NCBI RefSeq assembly: GCF_014395975.1
Contig: NZ_CP060714.1
Location: 4,463,686-4,527,685 of the forward strand
DNA from: Diaphorobacter ruginosibacter
Lineage (GTDB): Bacteria; Pseudomonadota; Gammaproteobacteria; Burkholderiales; Burkholderiaceae_C
Direction: 5' to 3'
Length of the DNA stretch: 64,000 nt
Position 1 is the stretch's first letter. Each line of letters opens with the position of its first letter. The translations under genes and the position numbers were made by a program. The notes beneath the pieces were generated by a model. That model was not told the origin of the DNA, made no database searches, and saw nothing but the letters and a program-made list of their open reading frames with translations. This document shows positions 18,238 to 39,286 of this stretch, piece after piece.

Positions 18238-18243
18238 ATCGGT

Positions 18244-18807: not shown

Positions 18808-19577
18808 CCCATCTTCTTGATGCGCTTGACCATTTCCTTCGCGAAATCGACGAAGGCCTGGCTGCCCTTGGCGTTCGGGTCGAACACCACGCCGGGCAGG
18901 CCGTAGCTGGGAGCTTCGGCCAGACGCACGTTGCGCGGAATGACGGTGTCGAACACCTTGTCGCCGAAGTGGTCCTTGAGCTGCTCGCTCACCTGGCTCT
19001 GCAGCGTGATGCGCGGGTCGTACATCACGCGCAGCAGGCCGATCACCTGCAGGTCGGGGTTCAGGTTGGCGTGCACCTGCTTGATGGTGTTGACCAGATC
19101 GGTCAGCCCTTCCAGCGCGAAGTATTCGCACTGCATGGGAACGACCACGCCGTTCGCGCTGCACAGGCCGTTGAGCGTGAGCATCGAGAGGCTGGGCGGG
19201 CAGTCGATCAGCACGAAGTCGTAGTCCTTGTCCACGGCGGCAAGGGCCGCCTTGAGGCGCCGCTCACGCTGCTCGAGCGTGACCAGCTCGACTTCGGCAC
19301 CGGCCAGTTCGCGATTGGCGCCAAGCACGTGGTAGCCGCACTGCTCCGAGAAAACGGCGGCCTCCTTGATGCCGGCGGTTTCCAGCAGCACGTCGTACAC
19401 GCTGAGCTCGAGGGAGCGCTTGTCCACGCCCGAGCCCATGGTCGCATTGCCCTGCGGGTCCAGATCGACCATGAGCACGCGTTGCTTGATCCGGGCAAGA
19501 CCTGCCGCGAGGTTCACGGTGGTCGTGGTCTTGCCCACTCCACCCTTCTGATTGGCGATGCAGAAAATCTTGGCCAT
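18804..19577 (-). CDS. parA: chromosome partitioning ATPase ParA (Soj)
   Basis: MAKIFCIANQKGGVGKTTT, deviant Walker A. Confidence 0.95.
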   Translation of the reverse strand: MAKIFCIANQKGGVGKTTTTVNLAAGLARIKQRVLMVDLDPQGNATMGSGVDKRSLELSVYDVLLETAGIKEAAVFSEQCGYHVLGANRELAGAEVELVTLEQRERRLKAALAAVDKDYDFVLIDCPPSLSMLTLNGLCSANGVVVPMQCEYFALEGLTDLVNTIKQVHANLNPDLQVIGLLRVMYDPRITLQSQVSEQLKDHFGDKVFDTVIPRNVRLAEAPSYGLPGVVFDPNAKGSQAFVDFAKEMVKRIKKMG

Positions 19578-19598
19578 GCGATCTTTTCGAAGTGCTTG

Positions 19599-20213
19599 TT
19601 ATTTGGAAATGGCCAGCTTGACGCCGAAGCCGATGAGAAAAGTACCTGCCGTCTTTTCGAGCATGTTCACGATCCGTGGGTTGGCGCGCATGCGCTCGGC
19701 CAGGAAGTGCGTCAGCAGGATCATGATCGTCGAATAGAGCAGGGTCAGGGTCGCCACCGTGGCCGCCATTGCCGCAAAAGTGACAAGGCCGCGGTGTGTC
19801 TGCGGATTGACGAACAACGGAAAGAACGCCATGTAGAACACGATGGCCTTCGGGTTGAACAGCGTGATGATCGCGCCCTGCCGGAAGTAGTGATGCGGCC
19901 TGATGTTGACCACCGGCGCGTCGCCGGGCTTGGCGCGCAGCATGCGCCAGCCAATCCAGGCGAGGTAGGCGGCACCCACCCACTGCACCATGTGGAATGC
20001 TGCGGGATAGGCGGCCATCAGGCCGGCCACGCCACCCACCGCCGCCCACATGAGCATCTGGTCGGCACAGATCACGCCGAATGTGGAGGCAAAGCCGCCG
20101 CGGAAGCCCCCCTTGCTGGTCGACGTGATCAACGCCAGATTCCCGGGGCCGGGAATGCACAGGAACAGGATGATCGCGGCGACGAAAGCGCCGTAGTCCG
20201 AGATGCCAAACAT
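19599..20213 (-). CDS. LysE/RhtB-family amino acid exporter
   Basis: 204 aa, 6 TM, LysE family N-terminus (FLCIPGPGNLAL). Confidence 0.85.
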   Translation of the reverse strand: MFGISDYGAFVAAIILFLCIPGPGNLALITSTSKGGFRGGFASTFGVICADQMLMWAAVGGVAGLMAAYPAAFHMVQWVGAAYLAWIGWRMLRAKPGDAPVVNIRPHHYFRQGAIITLFNPKAIVFYMAFFPLFVNPQTHRGLVTFAAMAATVATLTLLYSTIMILLTHFLAERMRANPRIVNMLEKTAGTFLIGFGVKLAISK

Positions 20214-20265
20214 GGGGATAACCTTCGCGCAGGACGAAAAGACGAGTCCCTAGTTTAAGCCACGC

Positions 20266-20922
20266 TCACGACTTGGGCCTCATCCACACAATGCAACGGT
20301 CTGCATCAAGGCCGGGCACTACCAGTTGTTCCACGTGAAACACCTCCACGTCGGCGCCCAGGGCGGCCTGCTCGTCATCGGTTTGCTTGCCCTTCATGGC
20401 CAGCCATACGGCGTGATCCGCGAGAGCCTGCCGCGACCATGTCGTGAAGTCGATCAGCGACGCGAATGCGCGGCAGCTCACGACATCGAACTTCTGCGTC
20501 AGCGTCTCGACCCGCGCATGGATTCCATGCAGATTGGGAAGGCGCAGGGCCGCCGCTGCCTGGTTGATGAACGCGGCCTTCTTGGCCACCGTATCGACGC
20601 AGCTCACATCCAGGTCCGGGCAGCAGATGGCGAACACCACGCCCGGCAGCCCTCCTCCCGACCCGACGTCCAGCAGTTTCTCGCGCTGGCCTGCGGGCAT
20701 GGCTGCGAGGTGCCGCTGCAGCGGCTTGACCGCAGCCAGGCTGTCCAGCAGATGGTGCGTGAGCATTTCCTGCGGATCACGCACGGATGTGAGGTTGTAG
20801 ACCTTGTTCCACTTCTGCAAGAGCGATTGGAACTCCATCAGCTGCGCGAGTTGGGATTCGCCCAGATCAAGCTCCAGGTCCTGCGCACCCTCGCGCAGTT
20901 GAGTCAACAGTTGCTCGCTCAT
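20266..20922 (-). CDS. rsmG: 16S rRNA (guanine527-N7)-methyltransferase RsmG (GidB)
   Basis: GidB family with SAM motif [12 protein letters not shown]; 4-nt overlap with mnmG. Confidence 0.9.
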
Positions 20923-22892
20923 GCCTCTGCTTCCACGCTCTGTGCCGTCATGTTGGCGAACTCCTTGAAGCCACCCTTCTTCAGGTGCACCATCAGCAGC
21001 GAGATGGCCGCCGGAGTCACCCCGGAAATGCGCGAGGCCTGGCCCAATGTCTCAGGCCGATGTTTCTGCAGCTTCTGGCGCACCTCGAACGATAGAGCGG
21101 CGACCTGCATGTAGTCCAGTTCCGCAGGCAGGCGCAGCTTCTCGAAATGAGCGGCGCGCTCCACCTCGTCCTTCTGCCGATCGATGTAGCCGGAATACTT
21201 GGCGGCGATGTCCACCTGCTCGATCACGGCCTCGCTGAGATCGCCCAGCGTTTCACGTGAAACATCGGGGCTTGCATACTTGCCGCCATTCATCTGCGTC
21301 AGATCCGCATAGCCGACATTGGGCCGGCGCAGCAGTTCGAACAGGTTGTACTCATGGTCGATGGCCTTCCCCAGGACACGCTCAGATTCTTCGGCTGGCA
21401 GGTTGCGCGGATTTACCCAGGTGGATTTCAGGCGCTCTGTTTCACGTGAAACAGCGTCGCGCTTGCGGCTGAATGCATCCCAGCGTGCATCGTCGATCAG
21501 GCCCATGTTGCGCGCAGCCTCGGTCAGGCGCATGTCGGCATTGTCTTCGCGCAGCTGCAGGCGGAATTCGGCGCGGCTGGTGAACATGCGATAGGGTTCG
21601 GTCACGCCCTTGGTGATCAGGTCATCCACCAGCACACCGAGGTAGGCCTCATCGCGGCGTGGCACCCAGGCCTCCTGCTCTCTGCATTGCAGCGCGGCGT
21701 TGATACCGGCGAACATACCCTGCGCCGCGGCCTCTTCGTATCCGGTGGTGCCGTTGATCTGTCCTGCAAAGAACAGGCCATGGATCTGGCGGGTCTCGAA
21801 GCTGCTCTTGAGCGCACGCGGATCGAAGTAGTCGTACTCGATCGCATAGCCGGGGCGCAGGATGTGGGCGTTCTCCAGTCCACGAATGCTGCGCACCAGG
21901 TCGTACTGGATGTCGAACGGCAGGCTGGTGGAAATACCGTTGGGGTAGTACTCGTTCGTGGTCAGGCCTTCGGGCTCCAGGAAAATCTGGTGGCTTTCCT
22001 TGTCCGCGAAACGGTTGATTTTGTCCTCGACGCTAGGACAGTAGCGCGGCCCCACGCCGTCGATCTTGCCGGTGAACATGGGACTGCGGTCGAAGCCCGA
22101 ACGGATGATTTCGTGCGTGCGCGCATTGGTGTGGGTGATCCAGCAGGGCATCTGCGTCGGATGCATGGCCACATGGCCCATGAAGCTGAAAACCGGCAGG
22201 ATGCCTTCGTTCACCCCGCCCGGCATGCCGTCGCCGGGCTGTTCCTCGCACTGGGAGAAATCGATGCTGCGGCCGTCGATGCGTGGCGGCGTGCCGGTCT
22301 TGAGGCGCCCCTGCGGCAGCTGGAGTTCCTTGAGGCGCGACGACAGCGTGACGGCCGGCGGGTCGCCGGCGCGGCCCGCCGCGTAGTTGTCCAGCCCCAC
22401 ATGGATCTTGCCATCGAGGAAGGTCCCCGCCGTCAGCACCACCGTGCGGCCTCGGAACTTGATCCCGACCTGCGTGACGGCACCCACTACCCGGTCACCC
22501 TCCACCATCAGGTCGTCCACCGCCTGCTGGAACAGCCACAGGTTCGGCTGATTCTCCAGTATGTCGCGGATGGCTGCCTTGTACAGAATGCGATCAGCCT
22601 GTGCGCGCGTGGCACGCACGGCGGGACCCTTGGAGCTGTTCAAGATGCGGAACTGGATGCCGCCCTTGTCCGTCGCCAGCGCCATGGCGCCACCCATCGC
22701 GTCCACTTCCTTGACGAGATGACCCTTGCCAATACCGCCGATGCTCGGGTTGCAGCTCATCTGCCCGAGCGTCTCGATGTTGTGCGAGAGCAGCAGGGTC
22801 TTGCAACCCATGCGTGCCGCAGCAAGCGCGGCTTCTGTTCCGGCGTGTCCGCCGCCGACTACGATGACATCAAAATTCTGGGGATACAACAT
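20919..22892 (-). CDS. mnmG: tRNA uridine-5-carboxymethylaminomethyl modification enzyme MnmG (GidA)
   Basis: [29 protein letters not shown], full-length GidA; ATG at 22892. Confidence 0.95.
21249..21264. promoter_or_regulatory. parS-like site (CGTTTCACGTGAAACA, 1 mismatch)
   Basis: 15/16 to the parS consensus TGTTTCACGTGAAACA. Lies inside mnmG and encodes VSRET. Confidence 0.7.
21438..21453. promoter_or_regulatory. parS site (TGTTTCACGTGAAACA, perfect 16-bp palindrome)
   Basis: Exact parS consensus. Inside mnmG, also encoding VSRET. Confidence 0.85.
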
Positions 22893-23124
22893 GAAAGGAG
22901 CGCCTTTCGGGGACGCGCTGGCCCGCAAACTACTACCCGTGCACCTCCGGCCGCGCGCAACCGGAAGCCAGGCCGATACGCTCATGCCGCAGGAACTGCG
23001 CTACATGGCCGGCCTGAAAGAGCCCAGCCTGAATGGGCCGGGAAACCCCTGATTTTCCCACGCTCCGGCCAATCTGTCCCGATGGCCCTCCAAGCAGCCC
23101 CCAGGATCTTCCGGATGGCACTGC

Positions 23125-25249: not shown

Positions 25250-28200
25250 TCACTTCCTCGTGTCGATCTCGTCGCGCGCCATCTTGTTGAAGGCGTTGTC
25301 GATCTCGTCGGCCCGCAGCGTGGGCTTGCCGTCGCCATGGCGGCGCAGCGCATCGATCTGCTCCTGCATGCGCGTGGCCACCTGCATGAGCACGCGGTGC
25401 AGGCCCAGCTGCTGGCGCCGCGAATGCTCCAGGTGATCTGCCACGGGCTGCATGGCCGTCTGAACGATGGCCCCCAGAAGCTGCGCAGAGCGCTCTGGCG
25501 CGTCATCTGCGTCCGCCCTACCCTCACCCCCAGGCACGGGCTTTTGAACGCTTGAGAGCGCGTTTCCGATGCGCTGCAGCGATTCATCCGTCGCACGCTG
25601 TGCCGCCTGCAGCTGTCCCAGCAATTCACCCCATTCGCCCTGCGAGCGCTGGGACTGCGCCTGCTGCAATTGCCCGAGCTTGAGCCAGAGCTGCCCCTGC
25701 TTCTCCGACTGCGACAGCTGCTTCTCGGTGCTGCTGTGCTGTGCGCCCGCCAGATCACGCGTCGCGGCCACCAGATCCACCAGCTGCGACGCCACGCGCG
25801 TACCGGCATCGGCCCCCGCACCGCCCATCGCCTTCTGGCGCAGGAACTCGGCCTTGATGTCGCCCCAGCGCGCCGCCTGCTCCGCATCGAGCGCACCGCG
25901 CAGCTCGCGCAGCTTGAGCAGGTTTTCCTCCGCGCCCGTGGTCAGCATCTGCGCCTCGCCCTGGTAGTGGTCGTCGAGCATCTGCTGCATTTCCGCATCG
26001 TTCATCACCGGCGTGATCTTCTCGGCCAGCTTGTTCATGTTGCGGTAGCTGCCCTGCAGCTTGAACGGCGGCTCCTTGCGGTAGTGATCATCCTGGGCCG
26101 CGCTCTGGATGTACTGTTGATTCACGTGAAACACGATCTCGCGCACCTTGAGCATGCGCTGCAGCGTGGCATCGATCTCGCGCAGCTCGGCGGACGAGTA
26201 CTCGTAGCTCAGCGCATTGCCCGACACCTCCTTGCCCTGTGCCTTCTCGATCAGCAGGTACAGGTCCTGCAGGCTGCGCGTCGCCATGGGGGCGAGCACG
26301 GCGTTGGAGGTCATGCTGTTCTCGATGTAGCTCAGCTTGAACACTTCCTCCATCCCGCCCAGCACATCGCCCAGGTTGTAGATATCGGCACGGTTGGCCA
26401 GCATGTCCGGAATCTTGAACACCTCGCCCGACTCTGTGTACGGGTTGCCCGACATGACGATGCAAAAGCGCTTGCCGCGCAGGTCATGGGTCTTGGTCTG
26501 CCCGCGCCACACGCCCTCGATGCGGCGCGTGCCGTCCGAGAGTGAAATGAACTTCTGCAGGAACTCCGGGTGCGTGTGCTGGATGTCGTCGATGTACAGC
26601 ATCACGTTGTTCGCCATCTCGAGCGCGAGGTTGAGCTTCTCGAGCTCCTTGGCGGCGGTGGCGTCGGGTGCCTGTGCGGGATCCAGCGAGCGCACGGAAT
26701 GGCCCAGCGCCGGGCCGTTGATCTTCATGAAGATCAGCCCCAGGCGGCTCGCCACGTACTCCATCAGCGTCGTCTTGCCGTAGCCCGGCGGCGAGATCAT
26801 CATCAGCAGGCCCATCTGGTCGGTACGCCGGGTCTCGCCCACCGCGCCGATCTGCTTGGCCAGGTTGTCGCCGATCACCGGCAGGTAGCTCTCGTTGATG
26901 AGCTTGTTGCGCACGAACGAGGTGAGCGGCCTGGCCTTGAACTCCTCCACGCGGATGCGCTCGCGGTAGCCCTTGAGCACCTGCTGGCGCAGCTGTTGAT
27001 AACGTTCGAACTCCGGCACGAAGATGCGGAAGTGGTGCGCCGCGCGCATGCCCAGGTCATCGATCTGCAGCGCCATGCGGCCGCCGTCGATGCGCGGGTG
27101 CTGGCCCAGCAGGCCCGTGACTTCGGCACGCAGGTCCACCGTGCTCACGGTGTTCGGCAGATGGCTTGCGCAGGTCAGCCAGGCCGCCGCCTCGCCGCAG
27201 TAGGCCAGCAGCGCATCGCCCTCTGCCGTCTTGAGCGCCCGGCACGCCGTCTGCAGCCAATGCAGCGCGCTGCGCCAGCGCTCCGACAGCGGCGCGACGT
27301 GATGGCCGTTGCTGCGCTGGTGGCGTGTGTCGCCCTGCCAGTACTGCAGCATCTCGTCCCATTGCTGCGGGTTCTGCGCATCGCTCCTGAGCACGCCCTG
27401 CAGTGCCGCAACCGCCGACTGGCCGTAGCTCGAGAAATGAAAGCGCAGCGCCTTCTGTGCGAGCTCCGCCTGCAGGTAGTTGGCGGCCGAACGGATGAGG
27501 CCGTCGATGTCGCCGTGCGCCGACAGGCCATGGAACAGTTCGAGCAGGCCGCCCTCCTCCGCAAAGGTCCGCAGTTGCACACCGATGTCGGCCTGCAGCG
27601 ACTGCAGTTCCGTCTCGCTTGCGAACAGCGCCTGCATGGACTGTGCGTGCTGCGCACGGCGCGGCCACTGTGCGATCGCGCCGGCCAGTTGCGGCTGCTG
27701 GATGCGCTCGTGCTCGCTCCAGAACAGCACGGCCAGCGCGCGTGCATCGGGGCCGAAACGCAGCACGCCGGCCGCGTCGCGCAGCGGCAGCAGCGTCTGC
27801 AGGATGAGCGCCGCATCATGGTCGTGGATGCCGCGCTCGTAGCCTTCGCGGTAGCGGGGCGCGGCAAACTCGCGCACCGCCTGGGTGAGCGCGGCGTGGT
27901 CGAGCGCCAGTTGCCGCAACCGCACCTCATCCCAGCCATCGGCGCGATTGCGCGCGGCCAGCAGCAGGCTGAGGGCAAGGTATTCGCCACGGTAGAACTG
28001 CGGCGACTCCGCCGGCGTCGACACATCCCAATAGGCCTGCAACTGCGCAAGCTCGGGGTTGTCCACCGCCTCGAAATACTCGGTGCCCACCAGATGCAGG
28101 AACAGCTCCCGCCCCTCCGCACCCCGCGGTAGCAGCGTGAGCTCCAGGTCCTGGTTGCCCACGCTGAACTTGTGGCGCCCGAGCTTGATGACGTTGCCGC

Positions 28201-30802
28201 CGCCATCGAACAGGTCCGTGCGGTCCTGCAGCGAACGGAAGGCCTGGTCGCGCAGCGTCTTCACGCGGGTCTCGATATCGTCCGCCTTCACGGGGTCGAA
28301 CAGCTCCGTGCGCAGCCGCTCGGCCAGTTCCTTGAGCTTGTTGATCAGCGGATCGCCCGCGAAGAAGGCATGCAGCGCCTCGTTCGAGGCCAGCTTTTCC
28401 GTGCGCTTGGGCAGGCTCTGCACGATGCGCAGCGCCGCGTCCAGCACGCCCTGCGCTCGGCGCTGGCGCTCGTCCTGCAGCGACTGGCGGCGGGCCTCGA
28501 AGGTCTCGAGCAGTTCCTCGCGCTTGGCGACGATGTCGGAGAGAAACTGCTCGTGCTCCCCGAACTGGCCTTCGATCTCCTCGAGCTGGACCAGCAGCCG
28601 CGCAAGCTGCTCATCGCACTTCTCCGGCGTCTGCGCAAGTCCCAGCGCATTGACGATGCTCTGCGAAAACAGCGCCAGCTGCGCCGCGAACTGCGCCACC
28701 TGCTCCGAGCTTCCAAGGCTGCTGCGGCGCTGCTCGGCGCGCGCACGCACCTGATTCAGGCGCGAATAGATCACCGAGATGCGGTCCACCACCTGCGTGC
28801 GCTGCGTGGCATCGTCGATCTTCAGTCCGCCCATCAATTCGGAGAGCATGTCGAGCGCAGCGGAGATGCGCGTCATCTCGGCCAGCGGCTCCTTGAGCAG
28901 CAGCACCGTGGCCGCCGCCTGCGCCTGCTGGTCGAGCGCCTGCAGTTCATCCACGTAGGGCTGCAGCGCCGCATCCGTGGCGACGAATGCCGCCGTGCGC
29001 TGCGACACATCGCCCTGCGCCTCGTTCACGGAAGCCACCATGGCATCGATGGCGGCCGTGTCCACATAGCGCAGCTCGCGCGTGGACATGAGCTGGCCGC
29101 GCAGCCTGGCCAGCTCATCGAGCGCGGTGACATGCTCGTCCACCGTCGCCCAGTCGCTGGTGCGCAGGTGCTTGAGCAGGCCTGCATGCTGCGTGGACAC
29201 GGCGCTCATCGCGCGCGTCGACGCCTGCCGGATGCTCTCGACCTTCTCGTATTCGTCGATCACCGCATCGCCCGTGGCGGCAATGCCGTGCAGCACCTCG
29301 TTCATCTGCGCGAGCTGCTGCGTGTTGATCCATTGATGGCGCTCGAACAGGCGGCGCGTGGTATCGATCAGGCGTTCATAGCGTGCCAGCGACACCTCGG
29401 GCGCGGCGATTTCCTTGCGCACGCTGTAGATGTCGGAGATGCCGCTGACCAGCTCCGCATTGCCGATGCGGCCGAGGAAGGTGTCCTTCTGCGGCTGGCT
29501 GGCGGCATAGTCCTCGGAGGCGAACGGCGTGCGCCAGATCTGCATGGGGTGCACGCGCGTGGCCTCGTCGCTGTCGGCCGCGAAGATCACGATCCGGCCG
29601 TCCTCGAGCCTCGCGTAGCCGTGGCAGACGATGGGCGGCTGCAGCGCGCGCTCGATCAGGTTGTACTTGAACAGCGCCATGCGTCCGCTGCCCGGCTCGT
29701 AGAAGATGTACAGCACGTCCTCGCCGTTGGGCGAGCGGATGCTGCGCCGGAAGCGCATGCCCTGCATGTCCTGCTCGAACCTCCGGTGCTCGCCGCTTTG
29801 CAGGTAGTAGCCGCCCGGAAAGATGATGCCGTGGTCGTCGGGCAGCTGGATGCAGGCACCCGCGATCGCGTCCATGCGCAAGACCTGCTGCGACAGCGTG
29901 TTGTAGATGAGGTAGCGCCACTGCTCCTCGCGGTACGGCAGGATCTTCAGCAGCACCATGCTGCCGACCTGCGCATACTCGAACACCGCATCGTCGAGCG
30001 ACTGGTTGGCCTCCTGCACCGGCTCGCTGTAGATGCCGAGGCCGTCGTTGGTGTTGTTCTCCACCTTCACGGTGAGCGTGCCGCCCAGCGTCTCGACGAA
30101 CACCTTGTCGAGGATGTTCATGTGCGCATGGCGGCCCTGGACGATCTGCTCGCGTCCCGCGCGCTGCCATTCGAAGTCGTAGGCCGATGGCGGCAGGATG
30201 TCGCGTTCGCCGCGGTTGTCTATGTACCTGACCGCCTTGCCGTCCGGCGAGATCGACCAGCGGAACACGCGCACGTCGGTGATGCGCTCGCCGATCTGGA
30301 AACTTGCGAGCAGCTTGCTGTCGCGCACGACGAGCTGCATGAGCCGCGTGTTCTTGTAATAGGCATAGAGCTCCTGGAAGTCCTGCACGAAGCTCTGGAT
30401 GCCCAGGAAACTGTCCTTGAGGTCGACCGGTGCCACGTCATAGCCGTGCTCGCCCTCCTCGAGCCGGTAGAGCGCAAACACATCCTCCACGCGCGTGGTC
30501 TGCTTGAGCCCCATGAAGACGTTGTAGCCGAACAGCAGGTATTCGCCCACCTGCGTGATGTCGCGGCCCACGCAGTTGTTCTCGGTGCGCACCCGCATGC
30601 GGCCCAGCACCTCCATCTGGCTGCGGCCGAACTCCTCAAGACGTTCCTCGTTGAGCTGGCGCACCAGCGATTCGAGCTGCTCGCCCTGCGCGGCCAGGCG
30701 CCTGGCCAGCACTTCATACGATCCACCGCTGGCAACGGCCTGATCGACGACGGAGGCGGGTTGTTGTTCGGTTGGATGAGGCGATTCGGACATCTTGATC
30801 AC
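25250..30802 (-). CDS. giant (1850 aa) multidomain protein with an embedded MoxR/dynein-type (AAA_5-like) AAA+ ATPase domain
   Basis: Uninterrupted 5.55-kb ORF. Walker A is MMISPPGYGKTTLMEYV (nt about 26776-26802, residue about 1335). Walker B is VMLYIDDIQH. The MoxR-like sensor region is FCIVMSGNPYTESGEVFKIPDMLANRADIYNLG. N-terminal about 470 aa is beta-rich. Long alpha-helical/coiled-coil stretches flank the ATPase; no TM helices. Start is GTG 30802 or ATG 30793. Confidence 0.85.
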   Translation of the reverse strand: MIKMSESPHPTEQQPASVVDQAVASGGSYEVLARRLAAQGEQLESLVRQLNEERLEEFGRSQMEVLGRMRVRTENNCVGRDITQVGEYLLFGYNVFMGLKQTTRVEDVFALYRLEEGEHGYDVAPVDLKDSFLGIQSFVQDFQELYAYYKNTRLMQLVVRDSKLLASFQIGERITDVRVFRWSISPDGKAVRYIDNRGERDILPPSAYDFEWQRAGREQIVQGRHAHMNILDKVFVETLGGTLTVKVENNTNDGLGIYSEPVQEANQSLDDAVFEYAQVGSMVLLKILPYREEQWRYLIYNTLSQQVLRMDAIAGACIQLPDDHGIIFPGGYYLQSGEHRRFEQDMQGMRFRRSIRSPNGEDVLYIFYEPGSGRMALFKYNLIERALQPPIVCHGYARLEDGRIVIFAADSDEATRVHPMQIWRTPFASEDYAASQPQKDTFLGRIGNAELVSGISDIYSVRKEIAAPEVSLARYERLIDTTRRLFERHQWINTQQLAQMNEVLHGIAATGDAVIDEYEKVESIRQASTRAMSAVSTQHAGLLKHLRTSDWATVDEHVTALDELARLRGQLMSTRELRYVDTAAIDAMVASVNEAQGDVSQRTAAFVATDAALQPYVDELQALDQQAQAAATVLLLKEPLAEMTRISAALDMLSELMGGLKIDDATQRTQVVDRISVIYSRLNQVRARAEQRRSSLGSSEQVAQFAAQLALFSQSIVNALGLAQTPEKCDEQLARLLVQLEEIEGQFGEHEQFLSDIVAKREELLETFEARRQSLQDERQRRAQGVLDAALRIVQSLPKRTEKLASNEALHAFFAGDPLINKLKELAERLRTELFDPVKADDIETRVKTLRDQAFRSLQDRTDLFDGGGNVIKLGRHKFSVGNQDLELTLLPRGAEGRELFLHLVGTEYFEAVDNPELAQLQAYWDVSTPAESPQFYRGEYLALSLLLAARNRADGWDEVRLRQLALDHAALTQAVREFAAPRYREGYERGIHDHDAALILQTLLPLRDAAGVLRFGPDARALAVLFWSEHERIQQPQLAGAIAQWPRRAQHAQSMQALFASETELQSLQADIGVQLRTFAEEGGLLELFHGLSAHGDIDGLIRSAANYLQAELAQKALRFHFSSYGQSAVAALQGVLRSDAQNPQQWDEMLQYWQGDTRHQRSNGHHVAPLSERWRSALHWLQTACRALKTAEGDALLAYCGEAAAWLTCASHLPNTVSTVDLRAEVTGLLGQHPRIDGGRMALQIDDLGMRAAHHFRIFVPEFERYQQLRQQVLKGYRERIRVEEFKARPLTSFVRNKLINESYLPVIGDNLAKQIGAVGETRRTDQMGLLMMISPPGYGKTTLMEYVASRLGLIFMKINGPALGHSVRSLDPAQAPDATAAKELEKLNLALEMANNVMLYIDDIQHTHPEFLQKFISLSDGTRRIEGVWRGQTKTHDLRGKRFCIVMSGNPYTESGEVFKIPDMLANRADIYNLGDVLGGMEEVFKLSYIENSMTSNAVLAPMATRSLQDLYLLIEKAQGKEVSGNALSYEYSSAELREIDATLQRMLKVREIVFHVNQQYIQSAAQDDHYRKEPPFKLQGSYRNMNKLAEKITPVMNDAEMQQMLDDHYQGEAQMLTTGAEENLLKLRELRGALDAEQAARWGDIKAEFLRQKAMGGAGADAGTRVASQLVDLVAATRDLAGAQHSSTEKQLSQSEKQGQLWLKLGQLQQAQSQRSQGEWGELLGQLQAAQRATDESLQRIGNALSSVQKPVPGGEGRADADDAPERSAQLLGAIVQTAMQPVADHLEHSRRQQLGLHRVLMQVATRMQEQIDALRRHGDGKPTLRADEIDNAFNKMARDEIDTRK
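26117..26132. promoter_or_regulatory. parS-like site (TGATTCACGTGAAACA, 1 mismatch)
   Basis: Inside the giant AAA+ gene. Confidence 0.6.
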
Positions 30803-30958
30803 GCGCTTTCACTGGTGGCTCGCGCTCCCGCCAGCGGGAGAGAAAGGAAGGTGAGGGTCGTTGGGGATCGGGGGCAGCGTGATTTCCAATGCTGCCGATG
30901 CCTTCACCCCGGCCCTCTCCCGCACGCGGGAGAGGGAGCCTGAAGGCCGATTTCAGCC

Positions 30959-33043
30959 TCAGGCAGCAGGCGGCTGCTTGCCGTTGTCGGAGCCGCTGCC
31001 GGAGCCGCTGTTGCCCAGCAGCGCGCCCACACCGCCCTTGCTGTTCAGGAACTTGTTCAGCAGCTCCTGCACGATCGGGCTCTTGCCGGACACGCCCTCG
31101 ATCGCCTTGCCCACGGAGAGCGCCTTGGCGAAGTTGTCGAAGAACGCACCCTCGCCGCCCACGATGTCGATGTTGGCCTTGCTGAGCGCCGAGGACAGCA
31201 CCTCGGCCTGCTCCTTGGCCACGGTCTTGTTGGCATCGATGGCCGCGAGTGCCTGCTCGAAATTCTTCTCGAGCTGCATGCGGAACTCCTCGTGCGAGCG
31301 CGCCTGATCCGACAGGCCGCCGAGCGCCGTGAACTTCTCGGTCAGGCCCTTGGCTTCCGCGAACAGCTTGTCGCGCAGCACATCGGCTTCGGACTGGCCC
31401 ACCTCGCGTGTGACCGTGGCCCTGGTCGCACCCACCTGCGCCTCGCCGCGCGCCTGTGCAAGCAGACGCTCTTCGAGCACCTTGGCGTCGGCCAGGCCCT
31501 GCTTCTCGTTGGCATCGGCCGTGGCCTCGATCACGCGGGCATGCGCAAGACCCTTTTCCTGGTCGCCCTTGGCCTCGGCAATGAGGCGCTCGGCGATCAC
31601 CTTGGCCTGTGCCAGGCCTTCCTTCTCGATCGCGGCAGCGGTGACCTCGCGCACCTTCGCGTCGGCCAGGCCGGGCGCCGCACGCTCCACCTCGATGGCC
31701 TCGGCCATCTTCTTCTTGGCCTCGGCGGTCTTGCCGGCGGCCTCGAGCTCGGCCTGCGCGAGCGTGGTGACTTCCACCGCCTTGTGGCGCGACGCGGTCT
31801 CGTCGGCCTCGGCCTTCTTCACCTGGCGCACCAGGTCTTCCTGCGCCTGCGCCTCGGCGGTCAGCACCGTGACCTGCTTCATGCGCTCGGCCTCGGAAAC
31901 CACGCGCACTTCCTTGATGCGTTCCTCTTCCTGCGCCACGGTCTTTTCCACCGCCACGCGCTCGCGGACCACGTTGGCAATGTTGGCCTTCTCGACCTCG
32001 ATGGCCTTTTCCTTCTCGATGCGCTGCAGCTCCACCTCACGCTCGCGCGAGACGATCTCGAGCTCCTTGGCACGCGTGACCTTCTCGATCTCGATGACCA
32101 CCGCGCGCTCGCGGTTCTGCTGCGCCACGGCCACCTCGCGGGCCTTGTTCTCCTCGCGGATGTCCAGTTGCTCCTGCGTCTGGATGCGGGCCTGCTCGGC
32201 CTTCAGGCGCTCTTCCTCCTGCACCTTCTGGGTCTCGGCCTGCTCCCGCGCCTGGATGGTCGCGATCTCGCGCTTCTGCCGCGCTTCCGCATCGGCCTGC
32301 TGCCGAGCCAGGGCCAGCATGGCTTCCTTGGTTTCCACGTTCTTCTTGGTGATCGCGAGATCGGCGTTGCGCTCCAGTTCGTTGGTCACGATGTTCTGGT
32401 TGGCGGTCAGTTCGGTGATCTTGCGGATGCCCTCGGCGTCGAGGATGTTGTTGGGATCGAGCGAGGACTTCGGTGTCTGTTCGAGGTAGTCGATCGCCAC
32501 GTCCTCGAGCACGTAGCCGTTCAGGTCGTTGCCGATCACGTGGATGATCTGGTCGCGGAAATCCTGGCGGTTCTCGAACAGCTTCACGAACTCGATCTGC
32601 TTGCCGACGGTCTTGAGCGCCTCGGAGAACTTGGCGTTGAACAGCTCGTTCACGGCCCCCTTGTCGGAGGCGCGGTCCACGCCGATGGACTTGGCCACCT
32701 TGAGCACGTCTTCGGCCGTCTCGTTGACGCGCAGGTAGAAGGCCACTGTGATGTCCGCACGCATGTTGTCCTTGCAGATCAGTCCTTCCTTGCCGCGCCG
32801 GTCGATCTCCAGCGTGATCAGCGAGATCTGCATGAACTCCTTCTTGTGGATCACGGGCAGCACCAGGCCGCCGGTGAACTTCACCTTGGGCTGCGACGTG
32901 GTGTCGTTGATGATCAGCGCCGTGCCCTGCGGCACCTTGATGTAGAAGGCCTTGACCATGGCCAACATGGCAAAGATCAGCACGACGATGACCGCAACGG
33001 CCACGCCGAGAACGATGTACCACTCGGAGAAGTTCAAGCTCAT
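30959..33043 (-). CDS. flotillin-family (SPFH/Band 7, YqiK-like) membrane protein
   Basis: N-terminal TM helix, SPFH domain, then a long EA/EQ-rich coiled coil (AEAEARQKREIATIQAREQAE...), 694 aa. Confidence 0.9.
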   Translation of the reverse strand: MSLNFSEWYIVLGVAVAVIVVLIFAMLAMVKAFYIKVPQGTALIINDTTSQPKVKFTGGLVLPVIHKKEFMQISLITLEIDRRGKEGLICKDNMRADITVAFYLRVNETAEDVLKVAKSIGVDRASDKGAVNELFNAKFSEALKTVGKQIEFVKLFENRQDFRDQIIHVIGNDLNGYVLEDVAIDYLEQTPKSSLDPNNILDAEGIRKITELTANQNIVTNELERNADLAITKKNVETKEAMLALARQQADAEARQKREIATIQAREQAETQKVQEEERLKAEQARIQTQEQLDIREENKAREVAVAQQNRERAVVIEIEKVTRAKELEIVSREREVELQRIEKEKAIEVEKANIANVVRERVAVEKTVAQEEERIKEVRVVSEAERMKQVTVLTAEAQAQEDLVRQVKKAEADETASRHKAVEVTTLAQAELEAAGKTAEAKKKMAEAIEVERAAPGLADAKVREVTAAAIEKEGLAQAKVIAERLIAEAKGDQEKGLAHARVIEATADANEKQGLADAKVLEERLLAQARGEAQVGATRATVTREVGQSEADVLRDKLFAEAKGLTEKFTALGGLSDQARSHEEFRMQLEKNFEQALAAIDANKTVAKEQAEVLSSALSKANIDIVGGEGAFFDNFAKALSVGKAIEGVSGKSPIVQELLNKFLNSKGGVGALLGNSGSGSGSDNGKQPPAA

Positions 33044-33105: not shown

Positions 33106-33777
33106 TCAGCGCAGCGGCAGATCCAGGCCTTCGAATTCGGCCTTGCTCACCACGCGCCAGGCGTTGTGTTCCGGCATGCGCTCGATGAGCACGACCTCGG
33201 TGCCACGCGGCAGTTCGCGGTCGGGCGAGCGCATCTGCACGTTGAGTCCGCCGCCGCCGTCCTCGACGCTGCCGTAGCCCTGGCTCGCGTTGACCACGGC
33301 GCTGCGCACCAACCCCGTGCGGCCCAGGACGACCTTGGCCTCCTCGGGAGGCGCCACCATGGCGATCGCCTTGCGCAACGGCCGCAGCACGATGACGGTG
33401 GCAACGAAGCCCAGCACCGATGCGGCCGCGAACAGCCCGGTGCCGGTGACGATGTTCAGGAGCGTCCAGCCCTCGGGCATGGGCACGAGGTGCGCCAGAG
33501 CGTAGCTGATGAGCCAGGAGAGCAGGAACAGCACGGTCAGGATCACCGTGAGCGGAATGCCACCCAGCCCCACCTTGAGCAGCAGCCCGGCGAGCGCACC
33601 GATGGAATCCTCGGCACCGTGCCCATGGTGGCTGCCGTCGAACAGCACCCAATGGTCCATGGAGTCCACTTCCACCAGCCCGAAAATGGCGATCACCCAG
33701 TACAGCAGCATGCACAGCAGCAGCATGCCGAAAATGAATGTCGGGAATCCCAGCGCGTAATGCAAGAACGCCGTCAT
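33106..33777 (-). CDS. YqiJ/NfeD-like inner-membrane protein (DUF1449-type: N-terminal TM helices and C-terminal OB-fold)
   Basis: Same architecture as E. coli YqiJ. The C-terminal beta domain is GTEVVLIERMPEHNAWRVV. GAAGGAGGG RBS. Sits immediately upstream of flotillin, as in yqiJK. Confidence 0.75.
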   Translation of the reverse strand: MTAFLHYALGFPTFIFGMLLLCMLLYWVIAIFGLVEVDSMDHWVLFDGSHHGHGAEDSIGALAGLLLKVGLGGIPLTVILTVLFLLSWLISYALAHLVPMPEGWTLLNIVTGTGLFAAASVLGFVATVIVLRPLRKAIAMVAPPEEAKVVLGRTGLVRSAVVNASQGYGSVEDGGGGLNVQMRSPDRELPRGTEVVLIERMPEHNAWRVVSKAEFEGLDLPLR

Positions 33778-33955: not shown

Positions 33956-34663
33956 TCAGGCACTCTTGCCGGCCGAGGCCTTCTGCGCTTTCAGGCGCTC
34001 CAGCACCGACTGCGCATTGCCCTGTTGTGGCGTGATGCCCGCAGCCCGCAGTTTCGCATCCAGGGCGTCCTCGCTGCCTTCGCGCGCAAGTTCGGCCGCG
34101 CTTTGCAGGCGCGCGCCGCGCTCGGCCTGCTTCTGCTTGATGCGTTCGAGCGAATCCAGCGCGTTCTGCACCCGCGACTGCGAGCCGGTATAGCGCCCCG
34201 CAACGGTGGCCTGGGCGCGCTGCACGCTCTCGGTGGCCTTCACCGTGTCGGCCTGCTGCTTGAGGCGCTTGATGTTGGTGGTGGCCGCCTGGATCGCATG
34301 GCGCAGCTCGTCCACGCTCTGCGTGTAGGCCGCAAGCTGCGACTCCTCCTCGGCCTGCTGGGCCTCGAGCAGCGAGACCTTGCCCGCCACTTCCAGCGCC
34401 AGCGTCTCGTCATTCGTCTCGAGCGCCTTGAGCGCGTAGCCCTCGTATTCACCGATCTTGAGCTGCGTGGCCTGCAGCCTGGAGGCAGCAAGCTTCTGCT
34501 TGGCCATGATCTCGGCCAGCGCTTCCTTGGACTTGTTCAGGTCGTTGTCCGCGTCGCGGATTTCCTGGTCGAGGATGCGCAGCGCCTGACTGTCGGTGAC
34601 GGCCTCGCCCGCTTCGTGTGCGGCACCGCGCAGCGCGGTCACCAGCTTGTTCCAGACTGCCAT
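33956..34663 (-). CDS. PspA/IM30-family protein (YjfJ-like; ESCRT-III superfamily)
   Basis: MAVWNKLVTALRGAAHEAGEAVTDSQALRILDQEIRDADNDL... follows the PspA/Vipp1 helical pattern, 235 aa. AAGGAG RBS. Confidence 0.85.
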   Translation of the reverse strand: MAVWNKLVTALRGAAHEAGEAVTDSQALRILDQEIRDADNDLNKSKEALAEIMAKQKLAASRLQATQLKIGEYEGYALKALETNDETLALEVAGKVSLLEAQQAEEESQLAAYTQSVDELRHAIQAATTNIKRLKQQADTVKATESVQRAQATVAGRYTGSQSRVQNALDSLERIKQKQAERGARLQSAAELAREGSEDALDAKLRAAGITPQQGNAQSVLERLKAQKASAGKSA

Positions 34664-34710: not shown

Positions 34711-35364
34711 TCAGGCCTGCTGGGCGCGCGGCAGATAGCCGGCGAGCGCCTCGGTCACCTGGATCACGCTGTCGGCCAGCGCCAGGATTTCGCAGATGAT
34801 GTCGTCGCTGCTGCTCGTGGCGCGCATGGCCGAGAACATCACGTAGCCTTCGCCTTCCGAGCCCAGCGGCTCGAGCGCGAGCGTCGCATGGGGAAAGAGC
34901 TTCTGCAGGCGCAGGATCTGCTCGTTGAGGCCGGCGCGGTCGGCGACGTCCGCCGCCGACCAGAGGAACGCCTCCACGACGAGCTGGTCGCCCGAGAGCG
35001 CAAGGTGCACGGGCAGGTCACCGAAATCCGGCAGCGTGACCAGCAGGCTCGCGTCGGCGCCTTCCAGCACCTCGACCTGCAGGCGGCCGCCTTCGGCCAG
35101 CGCGGAGCGTTGCAGGTCTTCTGCAAGGCTGTGAATGTTCCAGTACGGATGTGTGCTCGATTCCATGTCACCCTCCTTGTGGTCAAAAGCCAAAGACTCG
35201 GGATGCGCCCCGGGCAGGCGCATCAACCTCTCCAGCCGCTGCAGGGCTTGCCCGTACTGCGGCAGGATCCACACCTCTTTCTTCACCAGCCCCTGCTCGC
35301 GCAGCCGCTGACGGTGCAAACGCTGGTAATGTGCCGAGGTTTTCGGTTCCAGTTTCGGTTCCAT
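34711..35364 (-). CDS. DUF2170 (YjfI-like) protein; the ORF has an in-frame 66-codon N-terminal extension (alternative strong internal start at 35166)
   Basis: SLLVTLPDFGDLPVHLALSGDQLVVEAFL aligns with E. coli YjfI. AAGGAGGGTGAC-ATG at 35166 would give the canonical 151-aa product. The upstream 198 nt is in frame and codon-biased. Confidence 0.6.
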   Translation of the reverse strand: MEPKLEPKTSAHYQRLHRQRLREQGLVKKEVWILPQYGQALQRLERLMRLPGAHPESLAFDHKEGDMESSTHPYWNIHSLAEDLQRSALAEGGRLQVEVLEGADASLLVTLPDFGDLPVHLALSGDQLVVEAFLWSAADVADRAGLNEQILRLQKLFPHATLALEPLGSEGEGYVMFSAMRATSSSDDIICEILALADSVIQVTEALAGYLPRAQQA

Positions 35365-35382
35365 GCGTCTACTCTAACTTCA

Positions 35383-35405
35383 TTACATGTGATGTGTACA
35401 TGTAA
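35383..35405. promoter_or_regulatory. palindromic candidate operator TTACATGTgatgtgTACATGTAA
   Basis: Two ACATGT palindromes in inverted arrangement, sited between the ATG at 35364 (minus) and the cobB ATG at 35428. Confidence 0.4.
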
Positions 35406-35427
35406 TGTGTGTCAATATGAAACTCCA

Positions 35428-36837
35428 ATGAAATCAGAGGCTTGCTGCCCCGCCCTGCTGATTGCCGCTCCTGCCTCGGGCCAGGGGAAGACCACGGTGA
35501 CCTCGGCCCTGGCCCACCTGCTCGCCGCGCGCGGCAAGCGGGTGCGGGTGTTCAAGTGCGGTCCGGACTTCCTGGATCCGACCTGGCTGGCCCTGGCCAG
35601 CGGCCAGCCTGTGGACAACCTCGACCTCGCCATGTGCGGACGCTCCGACATCGAGCAGCGCCTGGCGCAGGCGGCCGCCGACAGCGACGTGATCCTCGTC
35701 GAGGCCGTGATGGGGCTCTTCGATGGCACGCGCAGCGCGGCGGACATCGCGGCGCTGTGGAACCTGCCCGTGCTCCTGGTGATCGACGCCTCGGCGATGG
35801 CCGAAACCTTCGGGGCCCTGGCCTTCGGCCTTGCCAACTACCGGCCGGGCCTGCGGATCGCGGGCGTGCTGGCCAATCGTGTCGCAAGCGAGCGGCATGC
35901 GCAGATGCTGCGGCGCTCCGTGACGCCCGATGTGCGCTGGCTCGGCCACCTGCCGCGACAGAACGCCTCCGGCCAGAAGCCCATGCCCTCGCGCCACCTG
36001 GGACTGCTGCCCGCCGACGAATTGCATGATGCACAGGACCGCCTGGCCGAACTGGCACAGAGCCTCGGGCAGTCGGATCTGGGGCAGCTTCCATGGGAGG
36101 ATTGGCTCGCGCACTGGCAGGTGCAGTTTCCGGCACCGGCAACCGGCAGTGCAGGTGATGCCGCCGCGACCGAAAACGGGCTGCTTTCCGGTCGCACCAT
36201 CGCGATAGCGCGCGACGCGGCATTCAGCTTCATCTACCCCGCCAACCTCGCGTTCCTGCAGGCGCAAGGCGCCCGGTTGGCCTTCTTCTCGCCGCTGGCA
36301 GGCGACCCGCTGCCCGCCTGCGATGCGCTCTGGCTGCCCGGCGGCTATCCGGAGCTGCACACCGAGGCGCTGGGTCGCAGGCAGGATCTCGCGGTACAGA
36401 TTGGCGCGCACTGGCAGGCAGGCAAGCCCATCTGGGCCGAATGCGGGGGCATGCTGGCGCTCATGCGGGAGCTCCACTGGCCCGCCCGGGAACTGCGGGC
36501 TCCGCTGCTGGGCGTCATACCCGGCGAGGTGACACAGCACCAGCGCCTGCAGGGACTGGGCATGCAGGGCTGGCAAAGCCCCTGGGGACTGCTGCGCGGG
36601 CATGGTTTCCATCACTCCAGCTGCGAAACCAGCCTGCCCGTGCTGGGCCATACGCAGCGCCTGATCGACGAACACGAGCTCGATGCGCAATCGCGCCTCG
36701 AACCCGTCTATTCACAGGGCTCGCTGCGCGCGAGCTATTTCCACGCGTGGTTCCCCTCGAACCCACGCGCGGCGGCCGGCCTGTTCACCGCGCCCGATCC
36801 GACGACGAGCCCTCTTCCCGGATCCGCCAGCGCTTGA
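35428..36837 (+). CDS. cobB: cobyrinate a,c-diamide synthase (CobB/CbiA)
   Basis: [32 protein letters not shown]..., an ATP-binding N-domain, and a C-terminal GATase1 domain. Confidence 0.85.
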
Positions 36838-39055
36838 GCAGCAGTGCATTGGTCATCACGCTGACCGAGCTCAACGCCATCGCGGCGCCCGCCACCACCG
36901 GGCTCAGGAAGCCCAGGGCCGCCAGGGGAATGCCGGCCACGTTGTACGCAAACGCCCAGAACAGGTTCTGGCGGATCTTGCGCACCGTGCGATGCGAGAT
37001 GTCGAGCGCCGCCGCGACGAGCTTGGGATCGCCGCGCATCAGCGTGATACCGGCCGCATGCATCGCCACGTCCGTGCCATTGCCCATGGCCATGCCCACG
37101 TCTGCCGCAGCGAGCGCGGGCGCGTCGTTCACGCCATCCCCCACCATCGCGACCACATGGCCGCCCTGCTGGAGCTGCTTCACCGCGGCCGCCTTGTCTC
37201 CCGGCAGCACCTCGGCCATGACCTCGCCCCGATCGGGGTCGAGCCCCAGGCGCCGCGCCATGGCATAGGCGGCCCCCTTGTTGTCGCCCGAAATCATCAC
37301 GCAGCGCACACCCTGGGCCTTGAGCTCGGCCAGCGCCTCCATCGCTCCGGGCTTGGGTTCGTCGCCAAACGCCAGCAGGGAGATCGCCACCAGCCCACTC
37401 GTGCGTCGCTCGGCGACCGCGGACACCGTGGCACCCTTTTCCTGCAGATCGGTCGCCTGGGCCGCCAATGCCCCCAGGTCGACATTCAGCTCCTGCATCC
37501 AGCGCAGGCTGCCGATCAGGTAGCTCCTTCCCGCCACCTCGCCTTCCGTGCCGCGGCCGGGCACGGCGCGCACGCCATCGGGCTCGGGAATCGCCACGCC
37601 ACGCTCCTTGGCAGCCGCCACCACGGCTCGCGCCAGCGGGTGCTCGCTGCCGCTCTGCACACTCGCCACCGCGGCAAGGACGGCGGACTGATCGGCCAAC
37701 TCAGCGGCCGATGGTTCCACGTGAAACGCGATCAGCCTGGGCTGGCCCACGGTCAGCGTGCCTGTCTTGTCGAAAGCCACGGTATCGACACGGTGGGCCA
37801 GCTCCAGCGCCTCGGCGTCCTTGATCAGAATGCCGTTCTTCGCGGCCACGCCGGTGCCGGCCATGATCGCCGCGGGGGTCGCCAGGCCCAGCGCACAGGG
37901 ACAGGCGATCACCAGCACCGCCACCGCATGGATCAGAGCGGCCTCCACGCCGGCGCCGTAGGCCATCCAGCCAAGGAAGGTGAGCAAGGCGATCACCAGC
38001 ACCACGGGCACGAAGATGGCCGACACCTTGTCCACGGTGCGCTGGATCGGGGCCTTGGCCGCCTGCGCATCCTCCACCAGGCGGATGATCCGCGCCAGCA
38101 CGGTCTCCGAGCCCACGGCCGAGACCTGCATCACGATGCGGCCGTCGCCGTTGATCGAGCCCCCCGTGAGCTGTGACCCGGCCTCGCGCACCACCGGCAG
38201 CGGCTCGCCGGTCAGCATCGATTCATCGACCTGCGTATGACCCTCGACGACCACTCCGTCCACCGGCACGCGCTCGCCGGGGCGCACCACCAGCTTGTCG
38301 CCCGCCATCACCTCGGCGATCGGCACGTCCACTTCACCGTCGCGCCCCATCAGGTGGGCCACATCGGGCCGCAGCGCATGCAGCGCGCGGATGGCCGCCG
38401 TGGTCTGCCGCTTGGCCCGGGCCTCCAGCCACTTGCCCAGCAGCACCAGCGTGATCACCACCGCCGAGGCCTCGAAGTACAGGTGCGGCGTGTGGCCCGG
38501 ATGCGCGGTGAGCCACAGCCACAAGGACAGCCCGAAGCCCGCGCTGGTGCCGATCGCCACCAGCAGGTCCATGTTGCCCGACAGCGCCCGGGCCGCATGC
38601 CAGCCCGCCTTGTAGAAGCGCGCACCCAGGATGAACTGCACGGGCGCGGCCAGCAGGAACTGCGCCCAGGCTGGCAGCATCCAGTGCTGGCCGAACAGGT
38701 CGCCGAACATCGGCAGCACCAGCGGCGCGGACAACAGCAGGCCGATCGCGACCGGCATGAAGCCCGCCCAGGGCGACTTCGATTCCTCGCTCGCTTCCTG
38801 CTCCGCCACGGAGCGCGGCTCGTAGCCCGCATTGCGCACCGCGCGGCGCAGGATCGCATCGATATCGGCCTGCGTCGCTGCATCGCCGAGCGTGATGTGT
38901 GCACGCTCGGTGGCCAGGTTCACCGTGGCGTCCTGCACGCCTGGAACCTTGCGCAGCGCACGCTCGACGCGCCCCACGCAGCTCGCGCAGGTCATGCCGC
39001 CGATGCCGAGATCGACTACCGAAACAGGAGTTGGGGTGGTTGCAGTGTTGTTCAT
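36785..39055 (-). CDS. copA: copper-translocating P-type ATPase CopA
   Basis: GMTCASC HMA motif, CPC, DKTGT, and GDGVNDAP. Start set at ATG 39055 because the MerR-type promoter occupies the upstream candidate starts. Confidence 0.9.
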
Positions 39056-39072
39056 GGATTGGAAGTTAAGGT

Positions 39073-39093
39073 TTGACATGATGTGAAGGTCAA
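39073..39093 (-). promoter_or_regulatory. MerR/CueR-type operator-promoter for copA
   Basis: Read on the minus strand: TTGACC -35, dyad TTGAC-N11-GTCAA, 19-bp spacer, TTAACT -10. Confidence 0.65.
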
Positions 39094-39207: not shown

Positions 39208-39286
39208 GGTACACCATGGCATCGGTTCATTTCGATCCATTGAATTCCTCGAATTCATTCCATTCACCGCTCACAAGGAGAAACCC

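Follow-up and report, generated by a model that had tools for sequence, protein, structure and literature searches.

The window analyzed here, a 64,000-nucleotide (nt) stretch of the Diaphorobacter ruginosibacter chromosome (NZ_CP060714.1, positions 4,463,686 to 4,527,685), carries the gene of a giant AAA+ protein. This gene closes a run of five that share one direction and encode, in order, a BacA-like protein, PspA, a YqiJ-like membrane protein, a flotillin, and the giant protein itself (Table 1). The upstream genes reported in a first-pass annotation of the sequence as flotillin-like, NfeD-like, and PspA-encoding were confirmed. The reading frame is real: it is a single long open reading frame, 1,850 codons in length when counted from a GTG, with a G + C content at third codon positions of 0.89, at the level of other likely genes in this window of ~65% G + C, and every motif quoted in the first-pass annotation was found in its translation. 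Because homologues begin at M4 (ATG 30793), a near-invariant position, and a database protein with 99% identity has 1,847 residues, the true start is probably ATG 30793, giving an 1,847-residue product. No segment reaches transmembrane hydrophobicity (maximum Kyte–Doolittle 19-residue mean 1.37), in line with the transmembrane helix having been called absent at first pass, and we propose that the protein is soluble and cytoplasmic, with a mass of ~205 kDa.

The giant protein contains one AAA+ module with intact Walker motifs. In a conservation alignment of 72 full-length representatives (30–49% identity), the following motifs are invariant or at least 95% conserved: S1337-PPGYGKTT, D1405-D-I-Q-H, G1452-N-P-Y-T, P1465-DML-x-NR-x-D, and Q1583-GSYR. 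The first-pass reading, which had been made to depend on Walker motifs shared by the homologues, passes this check. The most conserved 400 residues fall in 1300–1500 and 1550–1650. AlphaFold2, run twice with a 75-sequence alignment each (residues 1–950 and 900–1850), gave mean predicted local distance difference test scores (pLDDT) of 82.7 and 80.5, respectively. The second model places an alpha/beta core around these motifs, with beta2 at 1357–1362, beta3 with Walker B at 1400–1405, a hairpin at 1427–1440 preceding sensor 1, and beta4 at 1446–1450; a helical lid and then long, low-confidence helices follow the core. The invariant stretch 1456–1481 has pLDDT below 50 and may become ordered only between subunits.

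The full-length Pfam scan returned only a weak AAA/AAA_5/AAA_22/RuvB_N signal over residues 1323–1460. Scanned as an isolated domain, the module matched AAA_5 at 27.7 bits (cut-off 22) over positions 2–128 of 139 and PF00004 (AAA) at 30.5 bits over the first half of the model only (2–72 of 131), and the MoxR model AAA_3 matched at the P-loop only (E = 0.21). A fold-search table of AAA+ proteins listed CbbQ, ClpB nucleotide-binding domain 2, and midasin at 7.9, Skd3, NorQ, and Lon at 7.6, dynein at 7.4, NtrX at 7.2, Vps4 at 6.8, and RuvB at 6.5. Sequence and profile searches of the PDB, with the whole protein and with a 73-sequence family profile, gave P-loop-level or spurious matches only (RuvB, NVL, Rix7, p97), and this giant family is one without a solved relative in the PDB. 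"MoxR/dynein-like", the initial description of the module, is a fair lead, weakly supported by sequence, rather than demonstrated MoxR membership.

The architecture drawn at first pass is right only in part. N-terminal to the module, the protein matches PF12458 (DUF3686) over residues 43–489 (E = 1.3e-200, 667 bits, profile positions 2–447 of 448), and AlphaFold2 predicts here a long helix (16–58) followed by ~28 strands between residues 64 and 425. Foldseek searches of the PDB with this beta-domain returned six- and seven-bladed propellers, among them paraoxonase, YncE, Ski8, and prolyl-oligopeptidase, with probability ~1.0 and E values of 1e-4 to 1e-6, at template-modeling (TM) scores of only 0.25–0.35, and hhalign profile self-comparison detected no internal repeats. 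Because the matches have low TM scores and no repeats were detected, the domain is called a divergent beta-propeller; this agrees with the description given by Ravi et al. (2024; PMC11237479) and with the beta-rich N-domain, a propeller or sandwich, surmised at first pass. A "protocoatomer-like" reading was rejected: its top Foldseek matches (IFT-A, Nup, Elp1) reach TM scores of 0.07–0.15, which is too weak.

Long coiled coils, which the first-pass annotation had placed on both sides of the ATPase, did not hold up in the predicted structure between propeller and module. Helices of 15–55 residues spanning 430–865 are predicted to stack into bundles resembling those of spectrin, talin, and syntaxin-Habc, including three-helix-bundle modules, and within them lies a match to PF25472 (DUF7902; residues 612–694, E = 2.2e-27). 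A small beta unit at 870–913 follows, at low to moderate pLDDT, with G875 invariant and F879 and T907 near-invariant. Next comes a compact all-alpha domain at ~909–1279, with pLDDT mostly above 90, and a long connecting helix. This orphan alpha-domain has no Pfam model and, by profile search, no sequence relative in the PDB. It carries the motif EGY-x-[RK]-G-[IV]-H-D-x-D-A at residues 986–997 (27812–27847); T907, E932, R938, Y988, G991, H993, D996, and H1235 are invariant, and conservation reaches at least 90% at E940, D994, and R1021. The AAA+ domain had been taken for the only recognizable catalytic element; it is not the sole conserved polar cluster, given the invariant positions between residues 932 and 1235. 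The orphan domain could house a second site, for catalysis or metal binding, or serve for docking.

Beyond the lid, the Gln-rich C terminus noted at first pass is present in the window copy, where residues 1700–1850 are 14% Gln, and is not conserved in the family. Because the tail region is gapped in 60–77% of diverse homologues, it is, from the alignments, lineage-specific and not conserved beyond close relatives.

Table 1. Coordinates of the giant ATPase gene, its encoded domains and motifs, and the associated operon features (positions within the window; residue numbers refer to the encoded protein)
Feature	Position	Strand	Basis or remark
Gene of the giant AAA+ protein, BacE/PA3728 type (named "DNA repair ATPase")	25250..30802	-	Open reading frame, translation, third-position G + C, homologues
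DUF3686: N-terminal long helix (16–58) and divergent beta-propeller-like domain (64–425), residues 43–489	29336..30676	-	
Helical-bundle region, residues 430–865, including DUF7902 (612–694, 28721–28969)	28208..29515	-	
Small beta unit, residues 870–913	28064..28195	-	AlphaFold2 strands, conservation
Orphan all-alpha domain with invariant polar cluster, residues ~905–1290	26933..28090	-	AlphaFold2, conservation
AAA+ ATPase core, residues 1296–1520	26243..26917	-	
Walker A SPPGYGKTT, residues 1337–1345	26768–26794	-	
Walker B DDIQH within LYIDDIQH, residues 1402–1409	26576–26599	-	
FCIVMSGNPYTESGEVFKIPDMLANRADIY, residues 1446–1475, with sensor 1 (N1453) and putative Arg finger (R1471)	26378–26467	-	
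Conserved helical lid/C-terminal region, residues 1521–1690; invariant QGSYR (1583–1587), possible sensor 2	25733..26242	-	Conservation; representative-search matches stop at ~1690
Gln-rich helical tail, residues 1700–1850	25253..25705	-	AlphaFold2 long helices, pLDDT 45–75
Flotillin-like SPFH protein, 694 residues, BacD/PaFlo3 type; N-terminal transmembrane segment, Band_7, long Glu/Ala-rich helical region	30959..33043	-	
YqiJ/short-NfeD-like membrane protein, 223 residues, BacC type	33106..33777	-	Hydrophobic N-terminal segments
PspA/IM30 (ESCRT-III-type), 235 residues, BacB/YjfJ type	33956..34663	-	PF04012, E = 5.9e-47
BacA/YjfI-like protein, 217 residues, DUF2170 at residues 75–211	34711..35364	-	PF09938, E = 6.6e-41
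Putative promoter and operator: TTGACA (35410–35415), perfect inverted repeat CATTACATGT-N7-ACATGTAATG (35381–35407)	35381..35415	-	Sequence

The giant protein is a regular member of a large family: it has DUF3686, DUF7902, a single C-terminal AAA+ module with the invariant motifs, and a flotillin gene upstream. Among the best 8,000 candidates, the only ones scored, it is matched by at least 5,688 clusters (90% identity), the majority of which carry the name "DNA repair ATPase" or "AAA family ATPase". With residues 1200–1850 as query, an exhaustive HMMER search recovered 941 clusters (50% identity), and 395 of these lay below 1e-30. Members of full length have 1,500–2,036 residues, with the AAA-matching region always near residues 1,100–1,650. 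The nearest relatives belong to the Comamonadaceae (Diaphorobacter, Comamonas, Delftia). When a member with 30% identity served as the seed of a second search, the same domain layout turned up in Bacteroidota, Verrucomicrobiota, Planctomycetota, and Sumerlaeia. The family ranges over Proteobacteria, Gemmatimonadota, Bacteroidota, Verrucomicrobiota, and Planctomycetota, together with the Sumerlaeia lineage. The flanks of the ATPase are catalogued Pfam domains (DUF3686, DUF7902), and the operon is published (PMC11237479); the family is nevertheless not a well-studied one, and a literature search for "DUF3686" returned zero papers. Family and operon are thus already catalogued and described, and the window copy is an ordinary chromosomal member whose one unusual feature is a lineage-specific tail.

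The gene is very strongly linked to flotillin. We sampled 80 related loci and six distant genomes. Flotillin lies upstream of the giant gene in 79 of the 80 related loci, the exception having only 74 nt of upstream sequence, and the order YqiJ-like, flotillin, giant is kept in each related locus whose contig extends far enough upstream. Five of the six distant genomes—a planctomycete, a verrucomicrobium, Hymenobacter, Dysgonomonas, and a Sumerlaeia metagenome-assembled genome—have a flotillin orthologue (43–49% identity) directly or closely upstream. The gene-level association of the giant protein with flotillin, NfeD, and PspA that the first-pass annotation pointed to is borne out. Gemmatimonadota/Longimicrobium loci lack the BacA–PspA pair, as do several loci from Lysobacterales and other Gammaproteobacteria. 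From the flotillin linkage in 79/80 and 5/6 loci and the dispensability of BacA–PspA, it follows that flotillin and the ATPase are the conserved core and that PspA and BacA are accessories.

Genes downstream of the giant gene vary: rhomboid (12 loci), phospholipase D (PLD)-like (10), zinc-ribbon (3), and MscK-like. Some distant loci have lineage-specific insertions around the giant gene; Hymenobacter has GmrSD_N and AAA_23 genes directly downstream of it (L084, 11094–13801). The verrucomicrobial locus has a second pspA with an adjacent 559-residue AAA (PF00004) gene, divergent from the YqiJ–flotillin–giant genes (L083, 1151–3750), and in Dysgonomonas flotillin and the ATPase are separated by a further insertion, made up of a Peptidase_M54 (archaemetzincin-like) gene and a 184-residue open reading frame (L085, 4673–5902).

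The partner proteins in the window are recognizable to different degrees. The full-length flotillin-like protein has no Pfam match even at E ≤ 1; Band_7 emerges (E = 1.1e-8) only in a scan restricted to the N-terminal 249 residues, with the coiled-coil part removed. Flotillin orthologues of ~700 residues in other phyla are also recorded without a Pfam family, and this class is probably under-annotated in databases. The YqiJ-like protein has no Pfam match, and the Dysgonomonas protein at the equivalent position matches YqiJ_N. The NCBIfam BacA model NF050185 matches the BacA-like protein over residues 6–212 at 237 bits, below its 300-bit cut-off; on this sequence evidence the protein is a clear homologue, not an equivalog, of BacA. 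Its N-terminal extension of ~70 residues (YQRLHRQRLREQGLVKKEVWILP...; 35155–35364) shows a faint MazE-like (PF11455) match and falls within the span of the NCBIfam BacA model as well. The 156-nt spacer between flotillin and the giant gene (30803–30958, reverse strand) contains two GC-rich hairpins, CCCTCTCCCGC-GTG-CGGGAGAGGG and CTCCCGC-TGG-CGGGAG, with no T-run; they are candidates for an element of RNA processing or stability, or for a repetitive extragenic palindromic (REP)-like repeat.

Upstream of the operon, the perfect inverted repeat adjoining TTGACA looks like a conserved repressor operator. Of 58 beta- and gammaproteobacterial loci, 56 have two or more ACATGT boxes in the 150 nt preceding the bacA-like gene, compared with a background of 0.016 per 160 nt; the boxes often lie on either side of a -35-like hexamer. 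The N-terminal ~70 residues of the BacA-like protein could be the DNA-binding part that recognizes this operator, a role that would agree with BacB–BacF being over-produced in a Pseudomonas aeruginosa bacA mutant. A sigma-54 promoter, as proposed in P. aeruginosa, was considered and rejected: no TGGCAC-N5-TTGC-like site (≤2 mismatches) occurs in 35365–35480. A sigma-70 consensus scan upstream of the operon returned nothing at its threshold.

The operon is flanked by a divergent cobB upstream and, beyond the giant gene, by a convergent old yellow enzyme (OYE)-type reductase. Further downstream (17284–22985) lie mnmG, rsmG, a LysE-type exporter, parA, and parB, an origin-proximal cluster; because this cluster lies just downstream of the operon, the window is core chromosome, probably near oriC. 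At 36785–39969, a copper/heavy-metal P-type ATPase (HMA and E1-E2 ATPase) stands beside a divergent MerR-family regulator, a CopA/CueR-like pair. A scan of likely genes from ~15.2 to 48.9 kb of the window turned up none for a VWA protein, in agreement with the first reading of the neighborhood.

The operon has been described before. Ravi et al. describe this very arrangement, a CesT/Tir–PspA–flotillin–YqiJ operon with a giant ATPase, which sometimes includes a PLD hydrolase and has abbreviated versions without PspA (PMC11237479). In P. aeruginosa, the corresponding operon bacABCDEF (PA3732–PA3727) is co-transcribed and affects biofilm, rhamnolipids, and virulence, and in a bacA mutant BacB–BacF rise 6- to 13-fold (PMC10948618). 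The flotillin PaFlo3 is encoded by PA14_16180 and a short NfeD by PA14_16160 (PMC13086221); the PA3728 "ATPase" is listed as recurrently mutated in cystic-fibrosis isolates (PMC8190622), and PA3728–PA3732 were up-regulated in all phage-infected samples (PMC12041424). Gene order in six Pseudomonas/Phytopseudomonas genomes, together with the "ATPase" annotation, indicates that P. aeruginosa BacE (PA3728/PA14_16190) would be a DUF3686 protein. These P. aeruginosa phenotypes and the phage induction are not specific to the window copy.

We propose that the giant protein is a soluble AAA+ mechano-enzyme which is recruited by a flotillin/NfeD scaffold, oligomerizes, and remodels flotillin assemblies (and PspA where present) during envelope stress, a reading to which we give about even credence. 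It builds on intact ATPase motifs, a defined domain layout, solubility, and a very strong flotillin gene linkage; flotillin binding, oligomerization, the substrate, and the direction of remodeling are what we infer. The protein would be recruited to the inner membrane face by the BacD-type SPFH scaffold and its YqiJ/NfeD partner, with the N-terminal helix, divergent beta-propeller, and helical bundles as candidate docking surfaces. The single AAA+ module would oligomerize, probably into a ring, and ATP hydrolysis could then assemble, disassemble, or otherwise remodel flotillin assemblies, along with the PspA polymer where it is encoded, in a role akin to that of Vps4 on ESCRT-III or of FtsH paired with HflK/C.

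Several observations weigh against this proposal. By sequence and by predicted strand positions, the aromatic pore-loop motif is absent between beta2 and alpha2, and a mechanism that threads its substrate as Vps4 or ClpB do is therefore not indicated. The Walker B motif is an invariant Asp-Asp, with Asp at the second position instead of the usual catalytic Glu, which likewise speaks against simple threading; hydrolysis could consequently be slow or switch-like. In Aureibacter (Bacteroidota), no flotillin lies within 8 kb of the giant gene. Deletion of paFlo3 in P. aeruginosa lowers biofilm by only ~20% (PMC13086221), and the literature search found no paper testing the giant protein itself, PA3728 appearing in gene lists only. 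The invariant H-D-x-D cluster of the orphan domain hints at a second activity that the remodeling model does not explain.

In a narrower account, the protein would be a Vps4-like ATPase devoted to taking apart the PspA polymer, with flotillin serving only as the membrane platform. This account draws on the presence of PspA in the same operon here, in most proteobacterial loci, and in Hymenobacter, on three-helix-bundle modules resembling MIT-like or Habc bundles, and on the AAA+ partners for PspA discussed by Ravi et al. (PMC11237479). We consider it unlikely: PspA is absent and flotillin present in Gemmatimonadota, Planctomycetota, Sumerlaeia, and several Lysobacterales loci; PF00004 covers only positions 2–72 of 131, with no MIT or Vps4_C domain detected; and the verrucomicrobial locus has a separate 559-residue AAA gene beside its own pspA. 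Lower still stands a conflict or abortive-infection system, in which the ATPase would sense envelope or phage damage and control an effector such as a PLD-like hydrolase or rhomboid protease. The variable downstream genes (PLD-like, rhomboid, zinc-ribbon), GmrSD with AAA_23 in Hymenobacter, and the phage induction of the P. aeruginosa operon (PMC12041424) would suit such a system, but we regard it as improbable because a PADLOC scan of the five operon proteins gave no relevant match, the only hits being those of PspA to LmuB and JetC, weak and of coiled-coil type; the core-chromosome site by mnmG-rsmG-parAB and cobB, with order kept across Comamonadaceae, is unlike that of mobile defense islands; and the window contains no effector gene, the next gene being the convergent OYE reductase.

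The role implied by database naming fares worst. That the protein is a DNA repair ATPase is stated in the PF12458 description and in NCBI names, and the best PDB sequence match of the P-loop region is indeed RuvB (E = 0.0015, 35 residues). Against this, the NCBIfam RuvB models score 18 bits versus cut-offs of 282 and 299 and match residues 1324–1368 only, no DNA-binding or nuclease domain was detected in profile scans, every conserved neighbor is membrane-associated, and the literature search found no paper supporting the name. The NCBI product name appears to be wrong, and we hold a DNA-repair function to be highly improbable. The remaining probability goes to functions not named here.

A bolder form of the remodeling proposal, which we advance tentatively and think has a modest chance of being right, is that the protein is the first member of an unrecognized class of bacterial membrane-remodeling machines: a flotillin-dedicated AAA+ motor whose orphan alpha-domain (Y-x2-G-x-H-D-x-D, E932, R938, H1235) would be a second catalytic or metal-binding centre, and whose propeller and bundles would coat or reshape flotillin/PspA patches. 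If true, bacteria would have an ATP-driven analogue of the ESCRT/Vps4 or coat-disassembly systems of eukaryotes. To our knowledge, no dedicated ATPase is known for either bacterial flotillins or PspA/ESCRT-III. The giant family is a plausible candidate for this missing energy source: it is large, spans at least five phyla plus Sumerlaeia, has motifs that appear catalytically intact, and is encoded almost always after a ~700-residue flotillin.

Set against its own family, the window protein shares PF12458, PF25472, the AAA module, and the length class (1,600–2,000 residues) of known DUF3686/DUF7902 proteins, and differs in its longer, Gln-rich tail. The gene order bacA-like, pspA, yqiJ-like, flotillin, giant is that of Pseudomonas, Lysobacter, Comamonas, and Delftia loci. 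Relative to the P. aeruginosa BAC operon, the window has five genes, without a sixth, bacF-like (PLD-like or rhomboid) gene downstream, and shows TTGACA with a palindromic operator rather than the proposed sigma-54 site.

Points of resemblance to MoxR-type ATPases (RavA, CbbQ, NorQ) are the nearly full-length AAA_5 match and a predicted beta-hairpin before sensor 1. The N-P-x4-G-x3-[IL]-P-x2-L-x-R and G-S-x-R motifs of the giant protein resemble the MoxR sensor-1/Arg-finger and sensor-2 signatures. The giant protein is about six times larger, with ~1,290 residues before the module; its Walker B reads DD, not DE; AAA_3 reaches the P-loop only; AlphaFold2 predicts no helix-2 hairpin insert; and no VWA partner gene is nearby. 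The midasin/dynein analogy offered at first pass does not carry over mechanistically: those machines have six AAA modules per chain forming an intramolecular ring, whereas the giant protein has one, with no MIDAS domain and no microtubule-binding stalk, and any ring must accordingly be a homo-oligomer.

Two further comparisons are analogies of function. As with Vps4 and ESCRT-III, an AAA+ protein is encoded with PspA and has helical bundles N-terminal to the ATPase; unlike Vps4, the giant protein is not a classical-clade AAA by profile coverage, matches neither MIT nor Vps4_C, and occurs where PspA is dispensed with. SPFH proteins pair with AAA+ enzymes in HflK/C–FtsH and in prohibitin–m-AAA protease, and the present operon likewise couples an SPFH scaffold genetically to an AAA+ enzyme. 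The giant ATPase differs from FtsH in having no protease domain and no transmembrane anchor, and the geometry would differ as well, the bulk of the flotillin being predicted to lie in the cytoplasm where the HflK/C cage is periplasmic.

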